28,277 nt of DNA. Origin: a virus. The translations under genes and the position numbers were made by a program. Below are positions 2,121-27,219 of the stretch, piece after piece (positions within the stretch are counted from its first letter, which is position 1; each line of letters opens with the position of its first letter). The notes beneath the pieces are model-generated. The model worked only from the letters and a program-made list of their open reading frames with translations. It had not been told where the DNA came from and searched no databases. Location: IMG/VR virus record IMGVR_UViG_3300045988_062674, positions 1 through 28,277 of that record, one strand, 5' to 3'.

Positions 2121-2348
2121 TTATTTGCTTTTGTTCATGTCTTTTTCAATCAAATCTATTATATAAGCGGTTTTACTTGGTTGTTTATCAAGCCATTTAA
2201 TAAGATCTATATTTTCTTTTTTTACTCTAAATTCGTATTTTCTGTAATTGGCTTTATTAAATTCTTTTATATATTCTATTTGATCGAAAGAACCACTTTT
2301 TTTTCTTACAATGTTTACACCTCCTAAACTTGAAAAAATGAAAGACAC
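2121..2348 (-). CDS. ribbon-helix-helix (Arc/MetJ/CopG-like) DNA-binding protein, first gene of minus-strand operon
   Basis: ...RKKSGSFDQIEYIKEFNKANYRKYEFRVKKENIDLIKWLDKQPSKTAYIIDLIEKDM matches the short RHH pattern common in Firmicutes phages and plasmids (beta strand then two helices). The start is ambiguous: GTG 2348 lacks an RBS, whereas AGGAGG (2325-2320) sits 7 nt before an in-frame ATT at 2312. Confidence 0.6.
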   Translation of the reverse strand: MSFIFSSLGGVNIVRKKSGSFDQIEYIKEFNKANYRKYEFRVKKENIDLIKWLDKQPSKTAYIIDLIEKDMNKSK

Positions 2349-2376
2349 GGTTTATAATATAAATGGTTATTTAATT

Positions 2377-2414
2377 AGGTTTGTTATTAGTGATATAGCA
2401 CTTTTAACAAACCT
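2377..2414. promoter_or_regulatory. 9-bp perfect inverted repeat AGGTTTGTT / AACAAACCT (20-nt spacer), candidate operator of the minus-strand operon
   Basis: Read directly from the sequence. Lies 30-65 bp upstream of the RHH gene start, in the AT-rich divergent control region, and is followed by a T-run on the + strand. Confidence 0.3.
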
Positions 2415-2595
2415 TTTTATTTGTGGCTTTATAAGTGTTATATCAATTTCAAAATCTAATTTGATATTTATGGATATTTTTGTTTTCATAAATATCACCG
2501 CTTTCTATTATGCGGAGTTTAACCGTGTCAACTTTATAAGTTTGACCCGTGTCTTTTGTGTAAGCTTTTTATTTAGCTTACACTTACATTATAAG

Positions 2596-2611
2596 CATAT
2601 GCATGCATATG
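2596..2611. promoter_or_regulatory. perfect 16-bp palindrome CATATGCATGCATATG
   Basis: Read directly. Located in the ORF-free divergent region, next to a 9-bp-stem hairpin GTGTAAGCT/AGCTTACAC (2557-2583). Candidate dimeric regulator site. Confidence 0.3.
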
Positions 2612-2767
2612 TCAACAAAAAATTAATAATATTTTTTTGTGCTCATTTTTTCAAAAAGCTTTTATCTTTGTAAACGTGTACGCAAGCACCTATTTATAAG
2701 GCTTTTAAGCGTGTTTGCGTTTAGTCTTATAAGATATAGTTATCAGACTTGTATATATGTACTATAT

Positions 2768-2792
2768 GGACGTGGTAAGCGTCCCTTTTTTT
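2768..2792 (+). terminator. orphan intrinsic-terminator-like hairpin (GGACG-7nt-CGTCC + T7)
   Basis: 5-bp GC-rich stem followed by seven T. No + strand CDS lies upstream to terminate. Confidence 0.35.
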
Positions 2793-2897
2793 GTGGGCGT
2801 TGCTTCAGTTCCAGGAAGACAAGTGACACGCTTAACCATATGGAACGGGTGCGCATGCGTTCTATTAATAGAGTCATGGCCATGTTATGAAACAACG

Positions 2898-2930
2898 CTT
2901 TCAACAAGTCATGTTGAAACATCTTTCAAC
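2898..2930. repeat. CTTTCAAC / GTTGAAA / CTTTCAAC triple element (mutually exclusive hairpins); also CATGTT..GAAACA direct repeat
   Basis: Read directly: 2898-2905, 2913-2919 and 2923-2930. The middle arm can pair with either flank. Lies in the GC-richer ORF-free leader upstream of HNH/terminase. Confidence 0.4.
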
Positions 2931-3156
2931 ACAATAATAAATATATGAATGTCATATGATTGAAGCCATGAACGTGGTTGTGTGGTGGTAGCTGCATAGG
3001 TTTGATTTTTAACCCTGAAAGCGCCTAGGGCTGGGATCAGATCAGCATAGACCCCCCCTATCTTTCAAAAGTTTTTTGCATTTTGGGGAACGGCGTGGGG
3101 AGTTCAAAAAAACTGGGTTATGAGCGCATGAGAGGGGGTAAAATCTGAATTTCTTC

Positions 3157-3175
3157 ATTTTGTACAGTGTACAAA
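3157..3175 (+). promoter_or_regulatory. conserved 19-nt element ATTTTGTACAGTGTACAAA, copy 1 (tandem TGTACA-G-TGTACA)
   Basis: Identical 19-mer recurs at 26824-26842. This copy lies about 210 nt upstream of the first packaging gene. Confidence 0.5.
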
Positions 3176-3270
3176 GAAAAACCGTGATATTCTGTAGTCG
3201 TGAAGATTGGAAAACATCTTCTGAACAAACAAGGTAGTTCTTGGATTGTTTCATTATTTCGTGCCCGTTG

Positions 3271-3300
3271 AAAAAGACCTGTGGAAACATGGGTCTTTTT
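3271..3300. terminator. bidirectional terminator-like hairpin AAAAAGACC...GGTCTTTTT
   Basis: A5-GACC(TGT) GGAA (ACA)..GGTC-T5 between the 19-nt element and the HNH gene. The A-run/T-run symmetry allows action on both strands. Confidence 0.45.
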
Positions 3301-3310
3301 CATATCACTG

Positions 3311-3377
3311 CATTCAAAGTGTTTACTGTTTAGATTTCCGTCCTTTCCTTTAAATCTGTTAACTAAAACTTTGAATG
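3311..3377 (+). promoter_or_regulatory. 67-nt imperfect hairpin abutting the HNH start codon
   Basis: CATTCAAAGT (3311-3320) pairs perfectly with ACTTTGAATG (3368-3377). Inner stems are TTTA/TAAA and AGATTT/AAATCT. The 3' arm ends 8 nt before ATG 3385, which has no obvious SD. Confidence 0.4.
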
Positions 3378-3384
3378 TAGCGAT

Positions 3385-3771
3385 ATGAAAAAATATTATG
3401 GTTCAGAAGCAACAAAAACAGGTGCTAGAAATTATGCTAGAAAATTTTACTCAAGCAAGGCTTGGGAAAAGAAAAGTAAAGCGTATAGAAAGGCACATCC
3501 ACTTTGTGAAAGATGTTTGAAAAAAGGTATCTATACCAGGTCGACTTGCGTGCACCACAAAGTGCACATTGACCAGGACAACTATAGAGATGTACACATT
3601 CTATTTGGCGATTCTAATTTGGAAGCGTTGTGTGACTTATGTCATGCAGAAGAACATTCCGAACGTAAACCATCTTTTGAATTTGATGAAAACGGAATGC
3701 TTATAGGATGTGGAAGGGAGGATGATGAATGCAAAAAGGAGCATGGAAAAAAAGAATCAATTCACAACTAG
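3385..3771 (+). CDS. HNH endonuclease (packaging-associated)
   Basis: CERC...CVHHKVH...NLEALCDLCHAEEH motif set (Cys pairs, HH and H-N-H) in a small 128-aa protein directly upstream of the terminase genes. Confidence 0.9.
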   Translation: MKKYYGSEATKTGARNYARKFYSSKAWEKKSKAYRKAHPLCERCLKKGIYTRSTCVHHKVHIDQDNYRDVHILFGDSNLEALCDLCHAEEHSERKPSFEFDENGMLIGCGREDDECKKEHGKKESIHN

Positions 3772-4103
3772 AGAATTTAGGCACATTTTCTCCTGAATAT
3801 TCGGTTGTGGTTGATTCACTTGCAGATGCCTTGGCCCAATACGATTCGACAATGAAGCAATGGAGAGATTCAAGTAAAGCAAATGGCTACAAATCACTAC
3901 AGATGGTTGTTGAATATACGAACAAGGGCGGTGCAACGAATTTATCGCGCTCGCCATACTACATTATTACCGTTCAATTACGTGATCAAATCATGAAATA
4001 CTGCAAAGAACTTGGCTTGTCACCTACTTCACTATCAAAGACAACAGAAGTATCCGAAAAAAAAGGTGATGAATTGGATGAGTTCATGAGCAGATTTAAA
4101 TGA
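3729..4103 (+). CDS. terS: terminase small subunit (P27-family-like)
   Basis: ATG 3729 lies 8 nt after GGGAGG. 124 aa. Matches by position and by ...GGATNLSRSPYY...LRDQIMKYCKELGLSP, typical of P27-type small subunits. Overlaps the HNH 3' end. Confidence 0.8.
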   Translation: MQKGAWKKRINSQLENLGTFSPEYSVVVDSLADALAQYDSTMKQWRDSSKANGYKSLQMVVEYTNKGGATNLSRSPYYIITVQLRDQIMKYCKELGLSPTSLSKTTEVSEKKGDELDEFMSRFK

Positions 4104-5758
4104 AATATTTAGACATTTATAAAGAACGTATTAAATCGGGTGAAGATGTAGTCGGTAAGTGGATAAAGCTTAATCTTCAATATGTTGAAAGAGGTTTAGC
4201 AAATGGAGATTTCTTCTATGATGAGAAAAAAGCAGAAATGCATATAGCGTTTATTGAAACGTTTTGTCATCACGTAGAAGGAAAAACAACAAAAGTAAAG
4301 CTTGAGCCTTGGCAAAAATATTATATTGCGTGCATATTCGGACTTGTTGATAAGAATGGAAAAAGGCAGTTTCGTGAAATACCTACGGTCATGGGCCGAA
4401 AACAAGGAAAATCATTTCTATGTGCAGGTATTGAACTTGATGTTGGATTTACATCGGATGAAGCAGGTATGCAGATATACAATATAGCGCCAAAGTTAAA
4501 ACAAGCGCAGATCATTTACAATGTTCTGTATCAAATGATGGAACACTCTAAAGCGTTGAGTCAAAGAGTGAAAAAACGTAGAACAGATATCTACATGAAA
4601 CAGAACAACTGTAGATGGGAGCCAATTGCCTTTGCATCTAAAAAATCAGACGGATTTAACCCATATTTGACAATCTTTGATGAGTTTGCAGCCTGGGAAG
4701 GGGAAGCGGGTATGAAAATGTACAACGTTATGTTGTCGGCAGGTGGTGCAAGACCTGATCCACTTTATATTCCTGTAAGTACCGCAAACTATATTGATGA
4801 AGGATTATATGATGAATTATTTGTTCGTGGAACATCTGTTTTACTTGGTACGTCTGATGAAAAACAAATGTTGCCTTTCTTTTATATGATTGATGATATT
4901 CAAAAATGGGATGATCCTATTGAATTAAGAAAAGCAATGCCAAACCTTGGAATATCGGTTTCTTATGAATATTTGCAGAATGAAATTTTAAAAGCACATA
5001 GCTCACCTACATATAAGGCGGAGTTCATAACAAAGTATGCGAATATCAAACAGAATTCAACAGAAGCATTATTCAGTGCAGAAGATATTAACAAAGTTAA
5101 AGGTGAAGAACTTAGATTTGAAGATTTTGCACATACATATGCAGTTGGTGGAATTGACTTGTCACAGACAACCGATTTAACAGCCGCATCTGTAGTTATA
5201 CGAATTCAAAAACAAGACTACATATTTACTCATTTTTGGCTTCCAACATTAAAAATCAAGGAGCTAGAAGAAAGAGACAAAATACCATATACAAGATTTA
5301 TTCAATTGGGATATTTAAGTCCAAGTGGGGAAAACTTTGTACGGTATGAAGATGTTACGGAATGGTTTGAAATGCTACGTAAGAAATACAAGATTTATTG
5401 CGTGGTCGTTGGATATGACCGTTATTCGGCTCAGTATCTTGTGGACGATATGAAGAAATACGGATACAAGATGGATGATGTTATTCAGGGTACTAACCTT
5501 ACACCAGTTATTAATGAATTTACGGGATATGTAAGAGATGGATTTGTTCATACAGGAACAAACGGACTTTTACAAGCACATATGTCTAGTGTTGCATTAA
5601 AGAAAGTTGCAGAAGACAATCGTGTTCGCATGATTAAAACTGATCCAAGAAAACATATTGATGGGTATGCATCTGTTATTGATGCATATACAGTAAGACA
5701 AAAATGGTGGGATACATTCAAGTACCGCCTTGAAAACGAGAAAAGGAAGGTGAATTAG
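4100..5758 (+). CDS. terL: terminase large subunit
   Basis: 552 aa. Walker-A-like GRKQGKS, IFDEFAAW (Walker B) and a C-terminal nuclease-like region (VGGIDLS...DGYASVIDA). ATGA overlap with terS. Confidence 0.95.
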   Translation: MKYLDIYKERIKSGEDVVGKWIKLNLQYVERGLANGDFFYDEKKAEMHIAFIETFCHHVEGKTTKVKLEPWQKYYIACIFGLVDKNGKRQFREIPTVMGRKQGKSFLCAGIELDVGFTSDEAGMQIYNIAPKLKQAQIIYNVLYQMMEHSKALSQRVKKRRTDIYMKQNNCRWEPIAFASKKSDGFNPYLTIFDEFAAWEGEAGMKMYNVMLSAGGARPDPLYIPVSTANYIDEGLYDELFVRGTSVLLGTSDEKQMLPFFYMIDDIQKWDDPIELRKAMPNLGISVSYEYLQNEILKAHSSPTYKAEFITKYANIKQNSTEALFSAEDINKVKGEELRFEDFAHTYAVGGIDLSQTTDLTAASVVIRIQKQDYIFTHFWLPTLKIKELEERDKIPYTRFIQLGYLSPSGENFVRYEDVTEWFEMLRKKYKIYCVVVGYDRYSAQYLVDDMKKYGYKMDDVIQGTNLTPVINEFTGYVRDGFVHTGTNGLLQAHMSSVALKKVAEDNRVRMIKTDPRKHIDGYASVIDAYTVRQKWWDTFKYRLENEKRKVN

Positions 5759-24113: not shown

Positions 24114-24347
24114 GTGGTTTATATTAACAAAGCTAACAGATTAAAAGAGATACGTCCTAAAGATGCATTAATACTTATCAAATCTGTTGGATTAAGAAAA
24201 AAATATGAACAGGTTTTGATTATGAGATACGTATATGACATGTCATGTACCGAAATTGCAGATGCATTATGTGTGGAAGTACAAGCCATAAGGAACAGAG
24301 TATGCAAAGCAAGAAAAATGTTCGATAAATATGTGAGCAATCTATAA
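24114..24347 (+). CDS. mini sigma-70 region-4-like HTH protein (77 aa)
   Basis: LRKKYEQVLIMRYVYDMSCTEIADALCVEVQAIRNRVCKARKMF fits the sigma70 r4/YlxM-type HTH. No region 2 is present. GTG start. Last gene before a strong terminator. Confidence 0.65.
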   Translation: MVYINKANRLKEIRPKDALILIKSVGLRKKYEQVLIMRYVYDMSCTEIADALCVEVQAIRNRVCKARKMFDKYVSNL

Positions 24348-26802: not shown

Positions 26803-26828
26803 GGCCGTTAAATACGGTCTTTTATTTT
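26801..26828 (+). terminator. rho-independent terminator closing the accessory cassette
   Basis: AAGGCCGT-TAAAT-ACGGTCTT stem (one G-U pair) followed by TTATTTT. Confidence 0.6.
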
Positions 26829-26842
26829 GTACAGTGTACAAA
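26824..26842 (+). promoter_or_regulatory. conserved 19-nt element ATTTTGTACAGTGTACAAA, copy 2
   Basis: Identical to 3157-3175. Lies ~40 nt upstream of the holin ATG, immediately after the cassette terminator, with TATTAT/TATTAG -10-like hexamers downstream. Confidence 0.5.
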
Positions 26843-26881
26843 CGATTTAAATATTATTATTAGGATAGGAGGTATTTGTAA

Positions 26882-27103
26882 ATGAAAAAATATAGTAAAG
26901 AATGGTGGATTCAATATGGCTATTATGCAAGTATCAGAGCATTAAAGACAATTGCTCAAACTGCTGTTGGTGTTATTGGAGCATCTGCATTGTTGGAAGC
27001 CGTTGATTGGCGAGTTGTAATTTCGTCAGCGGTTTTGTCAGGCATCGTCTCGTTGCTGACTAGTATTGGCGGATTACCTGAAATTAGTGTACCGGAGGAA
27101 TAA
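26882..27103 (+). CDS. holin (r1t/Phage_holin_1-like)
   Basis: 73 aa with two TM segments. IRALKTIAQTAVGVIGAS...VDWRVVISSAVLSGIVSLLTS matches the ..KTFAQT..G......VDW...L..S pattern. GGAGG RBS. Lies directly upstream of the endolysin. Confidence 0.85.
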   Translation: MKKYSKEWWIQYGYYASIRALKTIAQTAVGVIGASALLEAVDWRVVISSAVLSGIVSLLTSIGGLPEISVPEE

Positions 27104-27105
27104 TA

Positions 27106-27219
27106 ATGAATGATGAAGAAAAAGTAGTAGATTATGAGAATCTATCAGAAGAAGCAAAAGAAGAATTAAGCAATGGCAAGGAAGAAGGTGTAGATGAAGA
27201 ATGTCATATTCCGGATTAG
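27106..27219 (+). CDS. small acidic ORF (37 aa) between holin and endolysin, not in ORF track
   Basis: ATG 27106 lies 6 nt after GGAGGA. MNDEEKVVDYENLSEEAKEELSNGKEEGVDEECHIPD. Overlaps the endolysin start by 19 nt. Confidence 0.4.
   Translation: MNDEEKVVDYENLSEEAKEELSNGKEEGVDEECHIPD

Follow-up and report, generated by a model that had tools for sequence, protein, structure and literature searches.

Packaging of phage DNA from a cohesive-end site (cos) with the assistance of an HNH endonuclease is exemplified by HK97, with its protein gp74, and by the staphylococcal cos phages phi12 and phiSLT. In Bacillus, 5'-terminal stem-loops act as stabilisers of messenger RNA (mRNA), as in the aprE leader, ermC and phage SP82. 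The late genes of Gram-positive phages have been described as being under the control of Ltr late-activator cassettes, with the activators RinA, ArpU and LtrA-C (PMC3152322, PMC3753634). According to this picture, one activator turns on the morphogenesis and lysis genes, and LtrA, one of the four families, resembles region 4 of sigma-70 (PMC3753634). Here, we report on positions 2349-3384 of the linear IMG/VR virus record IMGVR_UViG_3300045988_062674 (28,277 base pairs (bp); completeness estimate 63%), which was analysed at its full length and is referred to below as the window. This region is flanked by an open reading frame (ORF) of 75 amino acids (aa) on the minus strand (2121-2348) and by an HNH endonuclease gene (3385-3771).

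According to our analysis, region 2349-3384 likely contains both the genome ends and the late-control elements of a phage that infects gut Erysipelotrichaceae and packages its DNA from cos in the HK97-type, HNH-assisted manner. As a kind of element, it is an ordinary phage control region, shared by several related phage lineages. What is new is the specific design of this cos, the position of a terminator within the leader, and a hairpin that covers the start of HNH.

Genome ends and the cos site

A search with the HNH protein yielded 63 viral loci at an amino-acid identity of at least 91%. The stretch 2632-3384 was conserved in nearly all of these loci, while 2349-2631 was mosaic. More distant lineages, 65-70% identical in terL or 53-77% identical in HNH, were recovered by an exact 18-mer search and a metagenome profile search. 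Lineages are labelled A to H and, with B and B' counted separately, number nine. In 46-57 relatives and in the distant lineages, the core of cos, the block to its right and the two strong hairpins are conserved, which is more than chance would give.

The earlier note had expected a cos site in this region, beside HNH and terS. Contig ends now place it at 3091-3101, between two runs of C and G. It comprises the following elements.

3085-3102, unstranded: cos core GGGGAA^CGGCGTGGGGA^G, with nicks after 3090 and after 3101, from adapter-fused contig ends
3052-3058, unstranded: C-run (C7), left outer cos element, ending 32 bp before the left nick
3134-3138, unstranded: G-run (G5), right outer cos element, starting 32 bp after the right nick

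Five contigs begin no more than 4 nucleotides (nt) apart. Four of them start at 3102, in two cases behind an adapter remnant, and the fifth starts at 3106. In contig 146550 (44,713 bp, 99% complete), an Illumina adapter is fused to both genome ends, at 3102 and 3090. The left end of this contig reads ...GCTCTTCCGATCT|GTTCAAAAAAAC (adapter part also given as ...TACACGACGCTCTTCCGATCT), with phage DNA from 3102 onwards; the other end reads from phage into adapter, ...TTTCGGGGAA|AGATCGGAAGAGCG (phage part also given as ...GCGTTTCGGGGAA), with 3090 as the last phage base. Neither end includes the intervening 11 nt, 3091-3101 (CGGCGTGGGGA). A slightly corrupted adapter was present at the same left end of contig 160163 (44,728 bp; L013/L067), the other end of which crosses the joined cos. 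Evidently, both linear virion DNA and joined forms (circular, concatemeric or prophage) were sampled. Contig 137512 (L031/L059) carries the HNH region at both of its ends.

An adapter fused to a fixed base marks a physical DNA end. The end-polishing step of library preparation trims 3' overhangs and fills in 5' overhangs. Since the 11 nt are absent from both ends, they would correspond to a trimmed 3' overhang, and this in silico evidence indicates that bases 3091-3101 form an 11-nt 3' cohesive end. The terminase would cut one strand at 3090/3091 and the other at 3101/3102 to generate such ends. A literature search for the overhang CGGCGTGGGGA returned only unrelated eukaryotic and other non-phage papers.

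Diversity in the cos core is 0.002 (56 relatives) vs 0.08-0.12 at third codon positions of HNH, terS and terL. No change is seen in the 18-nt core among the aligned relatives, and exact copies of it occur in lineages that are only 65-70% identical in terL; one lineage possesses a 12-nt overhang variant, CGGTGCGGGGGA. In every lineage examined, 5-7 consecutive C residues precede the left nick at a distance of 30-32 bp, and 4-6 consecutive G residues follow the right nick at a distance of 29-32 bp; three rows of this spacing comparison were read by eye from the sequence. The near relative L098 has an interrupted C-run (ACCTCCC), and the DNA between the core and the two runs is not conserved between lineages. 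Because their distance from the nicks varies little across lineages, C7 and G5 represent outer DNA elements of cos in inverted symmetry and not an RNA helix. The pairing of these runs over ~80 nt that had been suggested earlier was rejected, as 3040-3150 folds as RNA no better than shuffled sequences (z +0.17).

The DNA between the right nick and the G-run includes a hypervariable patch, 3120-3131, with a diversity of 0.27. It stays an alternating purine-pyrimidine sequence in the relatives, for example, GAGCGCATG, GCGCGTACG and GTGTGTGTG.

A base-precise cos is now available for an uncultured, very common human-gut Erysipelotrichaceae phage family. Such a site makes it easier to fix genome starts, to tell when a genome is complete, and to search for satellites that borrow this cos.

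Predicted late promoter and leader RNA

To the right of cos, diversity is 0.00-0.03 across 3149-3250 and remains low onward through the terminator and the arms of a long hairpin, far under that of synonymous sites. The elements of this part and the second copy of its palindrome are as follows.

3159-3175, unstranded: 17-bp palindrome TTTGTACAGTGTACAAA in the -35 zone of the predicted late promoter; candidate regulator site, invariant in relatives
3185-3193, plus strand: extended -10 element TGA-TATTCT, 12 nt past the palindrome; invariant in relatives, predicted start ~3200
3202-3221, plus strand: stem-loop 1 (SL1), at the 5' end of the predicted leader
3223-3251, plus strand: stem-loop 2 (SL2), at the 5' end of the predicted leader
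3269-3302, plus strand: strong intrinsic terminator with A5/U5 flanks, inside the leader; z -5.8
3297-3391, plus strand: long hairpin (~97 nt) covering the HNH AUG at 3385-3387; z -9.7
26826-26860, plus strand: second palindrome copy and TATTAT, before an r1t-type holin gene (26882-27106) and an amidase gene (from 27201)

These elements point to a late promoter ~55 bp right of cos, in which the palindrome would take the place of a -35 element. The 19-nt element at 3157-3175, which includes the palindrome, recurs at 26824-26842. The spacing between palindrome and -10 element is 12 nt at both copies (3159-3193 and 26826-26860), and all five complete relatives contain exactly two copies of the palindrome, located at the same two places. 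The late-promoter reading is based on this recurrence of the palindrome with a -10 element before the holin gene, at two copies per genome. A -10 element was present at the equivalent position in all nine lineages, and its TGn extension in eight. The promoter-upstream element occurs as a single copy only in the genomes of lineages B and B', and lineage D has both copies inside the gap between cos and HNH.

The arrangement at 26803-26881 consists of a terminator (GGCCGT..ACGGTC and a T-run), the palindrome copy, TATTAT and a GGAGG ribosome-binding site, followed by the holin gene. Judging from its motifs, the site before the holin gene looks like a second late promoter without a leader terminator.

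Late transcription would begin near 3200, from the promoter made up of the palindrome and the extended -10 element, and the polymerase would meet the strong intrinsic terminator ~100 nt after the start. All nine lineages share the order of -10 element, ~6 nt, 5' stem-loop, intrinsic terminator, and long hairpin ending at the HNH start, while their leader sequences differ despite this common layout. SL1 is present in eight of the nine (mean z -2.7), and the whole stretch 3200-3396 has a z of -6.5. The bidirectional terminator that had been noticed at 3271-3300 corresponds to the hairpin 3269-3302 with its flanking A and T runs.

The long hairpin pairs UUUUUCAUAUCACUGCAUUCAAAG with CUUUGAAUGUAGCGAUAUGAAAAA, that is, the U-tract of the terminator and the bases following it with the HNH start region; the AUG of HNH is not preceded by an evident Shine-Dalgarno sequence. 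Across the nine lineages, pairing of the post-terminator segment with the HNH start of the same lineage amounts to -22 to -37 kcal/mol (mean -28.3), whereas cross-lineage pairs average -11.3 ± 3.1 kcal/mol; the own-lineage pair was the best in each of the nine rows. The plus strand folds more stably than its complement in 9/9 lineages. In close relatives, the terminator stem shows a change from C-G to U-A via U.G, and a change from G.U to G-C is seen in the terminator and the long hairpin. Most stem positions are invariant in these relatives, and 4 of ~2,250 cells break pairing. The loop of the long hairpin is variable among relatives and its arms are conserved.

On comparative sequence evidence, the leader has a genuine structure that is conserved at the RNA level. 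The prediction of a terminator-containing late leader thus finds support in the layout common to nine lineages, the covarying helices, and the palindrome with -10 element before the lysis genes; the conservation of sequence and structure among relatives that the earlier note had proposed to look for was found in the core, the right-hand block and the strong hairpins. The only well-supported candidate for a stable RNA is the putative leader of ~100 nt, from ~3200 to ~3300. Its 5' stem-loop probably acts as a 5' stabiliser. Since the strong terminator lies downstream of the promoter, late expression would need read-through or antitermination. In the read-through mRNA, the U-tract and the bases following it would pair with the HNH start region, and this pairing would keep HNH translation low or dependent on RNA processing.

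The junction between terminator and long hairpin carries insertions in some loci. L055 and L275 possess a 17-nt tandem duplication (CTTTTTCATATCACTGC) at the equivalent of ~3296. In lineage E, a tRNA-Asn (GTT) gene is located between the leader terminator and the long hairpin (L279, 1413-1488; L280, 798-873). The latter fits transcription through the leader; a promoter of the tRNA gene itself could also explain it.

The promoter-proximal terminator and the hairpin on the HNH start persist across sequence-diverged lineages. Read-through or antitermination, together with dampened translation of HNH, therefore seems to be part of late control in these Gram-positive phages; the published Ltr activator model includes neither. 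Our literature search found no paper on a terminator-containing late leader in Firmicutes phages.

Alternative explanations

The contig ends might be assembly artefacts that result from homopolymer breaks or chimeric adapter reads, with headful pac packaging as the actual mechanism and another role for the 18-mer. This explanation is very improbable. The adapter fusions are base-precise at both ends of a genome-length contig that is 99% complete, four other contigs start at the same base or no more than 4 nt away, and the gap between the ends is a G+C-rich 11-mer within an invariant core, in a genome that has HNH beside an HK97-type module. Many assemblies cross the site uninterrupted, which would suit an artefact, but such contigs are to be expected where prophage, circular or concatemeric forms are sampled. 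What continues to speak for an artefact is that the right genome end (3090) is documented by contig 146550 only, with no additional contigs ending there. Another explanation takes the invariant block 3146-3300 as a cosB-like DNA element, with sites for terS or a host bending protein, in which the hairpins are incidental. The position of the block relative to the nicks, towards terS, is indeed that of cosB in lambda; the block is extremely conserved, and SL1 and SL2 are thermodynamically unremarkable. We nevertheless consider a cosB-like nature improbable, given that the same palindrome and -10 element stand before the holin gene, where there is no cos, and that the helices are kept despite sequence change, including G.U pairs which would be A.C mismatches on the other strand. 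Distant phages with an upstream regulator-like gene also display the same order of -10 element, stem-loop and terminator. Finally, the length of the region might be accounted for by one or several hidden small protein genes or by a decayed gene. ORFs of 59-120 aa do exist on both strands of 2349-3384, but none of them has a Pfam match; the left half evolves at or above the rate of synonymous sites, with indels that are not multiples of three, and the right half is conserved per base and as helices, with no reading-frame signal. The coding potential of the internal ORFs was rejected on the grounds of the missing Pfam matches and the diversity pattern, so that a hidden gene is hardly credible and the absence of a credible gene, as noted previously, holds.

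Several points weigh against our interpretation of the region as a genome-end and late-control region, in addition to the single contig behind the right genome end. The promoter and the transcript start are predicted by comparison. In the window itself, SL1 and SL2 are no thermodynamic outliers (z -1.1), and their stems are nearly invariant in close relatives and, therefore, uninformative. No antiterminator was identified: ArpU (TIGR01637) is absent from three complete relatives, and an ORF resembling sigma region 4 is located 21 kb away, among the late genes. Moreover, in the staphylococcal Ltr cassettes described so far, the late promoter is preceded by the terminator, which separates it from the regulator gene (PMC3753634).

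Candidate regulator and possible antitermination

The ORF resembling sigma region 4 encodes the following protein.

24114-24347, plus strand: 77-aa sigma-70 region 4-like (LtrA-type) protein; PF08281, 34.3 bits; best PDB match, SigW region 4

This protein is barely more than the helix-turn-helix of sigma-70 region 4. Among isolate phages, its homologues are represented by one unannotated match. The profile of the Q antiterminator family, PF06530, matched it with a sub-threshold score of 20.7 bits (cut-off 26); this was the only match, and no Q-family protein was found above the threshold. The 77-aa protein is a candidate regulator of both predicted late promoters, perhaps through the palindrome.

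In ~28 of 40 distinct loci of distant HNH-first phages (lists read by eye), activator-type repeats, an extended -10 element and a terminator 59-117 nt further on were present, followed by the first late ORF. The metagenome loci L283-L330 contain two to three direct repeats (e.g. ATGAGAGT, ATGTCAC), an extended -10 element, a small stem-loop and an intrinsic terminator. This arrangement directly follows a gene whose product has a sigma-region-4-like helix-turn-helix at its C-terminus (translation read by eye) and precedes HNH.

We tentatively suggest, as a rather unlikely possibility, that promoter-coupled antitermination of the lambda Q type governs late operons in this phage and in a wide range of HNH-first gut Firmicutes phages. 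Under such control, a small regulator of the sigma-region-4/Ltr type would bind the palindrome and make the polymerase resistant to the terminator ~100 nt further on; without the regulator, only the ~100-nt leader RNA would be made. Alternatively, the 5' stem-loops may act in cis, like the put RNA of HK022. If antitermination of this kind were true, the Ltr 'activators' would be at least partly antiterminators.

Left half of the region

The following features were identified at or to the left of 3041.

2330-2358, plus strand: promoter-like TTGAAA-17-TATAAT, facing right; 11/12 matches in a consensus scan
2377-2386 / 2405-2414, unstranded: 10-bp inverted repeat, from sequence reading
2557-2566 / 2574-2583, minus strand: 10-bp inverted-repeat hairpin, from sequence reading, which would sit at the extreme 5' end of the minus-strand transcript
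2615-2588, minus strand: consensus sigma-70-type promoter TTGACA-16-TATAAT, 12/12 matches, ahead of the minus-strand accessory operon
2596-2611, unstranded: perfect 16-bp palindrome CATATGCATGCATATG in the spacer of the minus-strand promoter; operator candidate
2768-2792, plus strand: weak intrinsic terminator GGACGT..GCGTCC + T7, left of cos; z -0.8
2899-2930, unstranded: TTTCAAC / GTTGAAA / TTTCAAC (CTTTCAAC / GTTGAAA / CTTTCAAC), with invariant arms and variable spacers

Diversity at 2632-3041 is 0.11-0.20, which is at or above the level of synonymous sites, and indels are not multiples of three. Stretch 2349-3040 would represent a non-coding right arm of the virion DNA that drifts approximately neutrally. 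The gap between the last gene and cos measures ~150-660 nt in other lineages, so that the long left arm is particular to the lineage studied here. At 2848/2849, the window lacks ~55 nt that are found in most relatives, and the missing piece is flanked by GTGCGC repeats. This suggests a slippage deletion in a neutral spacer.

The inverted repeats of the AT-rich half (2377-2414, 2557-2583) and the 16-bp palindrome, all pointed out in the earlier note, are present. The two promoter-like sites, 2330-2358 on the plus strand and 2615-2588 on the minus strand, would face each other at a distance of ~220 nt; they could constitute an antisense or interference switch for the accessory operon. These sites would serve the minus-strand accessory operon and a plus-strand transcript, for which the site at 2330-2358 is a possible source and which would end at the terminator 2768-2792. 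The latter, previously described as an orphan terminator, exists and is weak. Its sixth stem pair is U-A, U.G or G-C in the relatives, so that the stem is kept by compensatory change. This terminator would keep plus-strand transcription away from cos.

The triplet of 7-mers at 2899-2930 had been regarded as a switch-like element. The motif itself is there, but its reading as a switch was not substantiated: the triplet folds modestly (z -2.1), and no covariation was detected, its arms being invariant. It may be a candidate protein-binding site. GTTGAAA / TTTCAAC occurs 24 times in the whole window vs 9.5 expected, and none of 100 shuffles reached 24.

Gene content, composition and host

The region is followed by the genes of a packaging module.

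3385-3771, plus strand: HNH endonuclease gene, first gene of the packaging module (PF01844; PHROGs agree)
3729-4103, plus strand: terS (PF05119; PHROGs agree)
4100-5758, plus strand: terL, with ATPase and nuclease domains (PHROGs agree)

Downstream of terL, the genes for a portal protein (PF04860), an S78 prohead protease (PF04586) and an HK97-type capsid protein (PF05065) follow in this order. The left neighbour of the region is a minus-strand cluster of small genes (338-2348), the products of which are without known function. The GC content is 0.23-0.30 at 2201-2700 and 0.405-0.425 at 2701-3200, in line with the GC-richer right part that had been observed earlier. All elements listed in the earlier note were recovered in place by sequence reading, three of them being qualified by the fold statistics.

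Rfam returned zero matches in the whole window at gathering thresholds. With an E-value search, only spurious matches to plant and animal miRNA precursors were obtained, on the long hairpin 3297-3391. No tRNA was detected by a scan of the window, and blastn of the region against an isolate phage database gave no match. By TerL, the nearest isolates are the Butyrivibrio phages Arawn and Idris (46% identity). The record of Arawn has an arbitrary start, at the gene preceding terL, and is uninformative on cos.

The 18-mer GGGGAACGGCGTGGGGAG gave 36 matches in bacterial genomes. Three of these are real prophages with the same flanks, in a Solobacterium metagenome-assembled genome, Erysipelotrichaceae bacterium MGYG-HGUT-03689 and Eubacterium sp. 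TM05-53. The remaining 33 were discarded as chance matches, since the flanks are absent and the genomes are mostly of high GC content. Because the 18-mer occurs with the same flanks in three such bacterial genomes, the host of the phage is probably a gut member of the Erysipelotrichaceae.

Comparison with known systems

As in HK97-type HNH cos phages, HNH is located beside terS and terL, followed by the genes for the portal, the S78 protease and the HK97-fold capsid; cos, in turn, lies beside HNH and terS and has a short, G+C-rich, 3'-protruding cohesive end. The phage examined here differs from them in that HNH is positioned just right of cos, as the first gene on the virion DNA. In the literature searched, the 11-nt end CGGCGTGGGGA and the symmetric runs ~31 bp from the nicks were not found. 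The general design resembles lambda cos (cosQ-cosN-cosB), with a nicking core between accessory DNA elements immediately upstream of the terminase genes. Lambda, however, has 12-nt 5' overhangs, asymmetric R sites and an IHF site, whereas a 3' overhang and an inverted pair of C-run and G-run are present here.

With regard to late control, the Ltr systems provide a number of parallels. These include a predicted activator-dependent promoter that lacks a -35 element and precedes the packaging genes, a palindrome site in common with the lysis genes, and a phage-encoded protein of the sigma-70 region 4 (LtrA) type. Unlike in Ltr cassettes, the gene for the candidate regulator lies away from the promoter, and the terminator is located downstream of the promoter, both here and in the distant loci. 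The latter arrangement is shared with the lambda pR'-tR'/6S RNA/Q system, where a promoter and a strong intrinsic terminator within ~100 nt precede a very long late operon; another likeness to pR'-tR' is that the candidate protein-binding site overlaps the predicted promoter. The differences from lambda late control are the lack of a Q homologue above threshold (20.7 vs 26 bits) and the host, which is a Firmicute. Finally, the position of a hairpin a few nucleotides from the predicted 5' end, as suggested by SL1 and by the minus-strand hairpin 2583-2557, is the one known from the 5' stabilisers of Bacillus.

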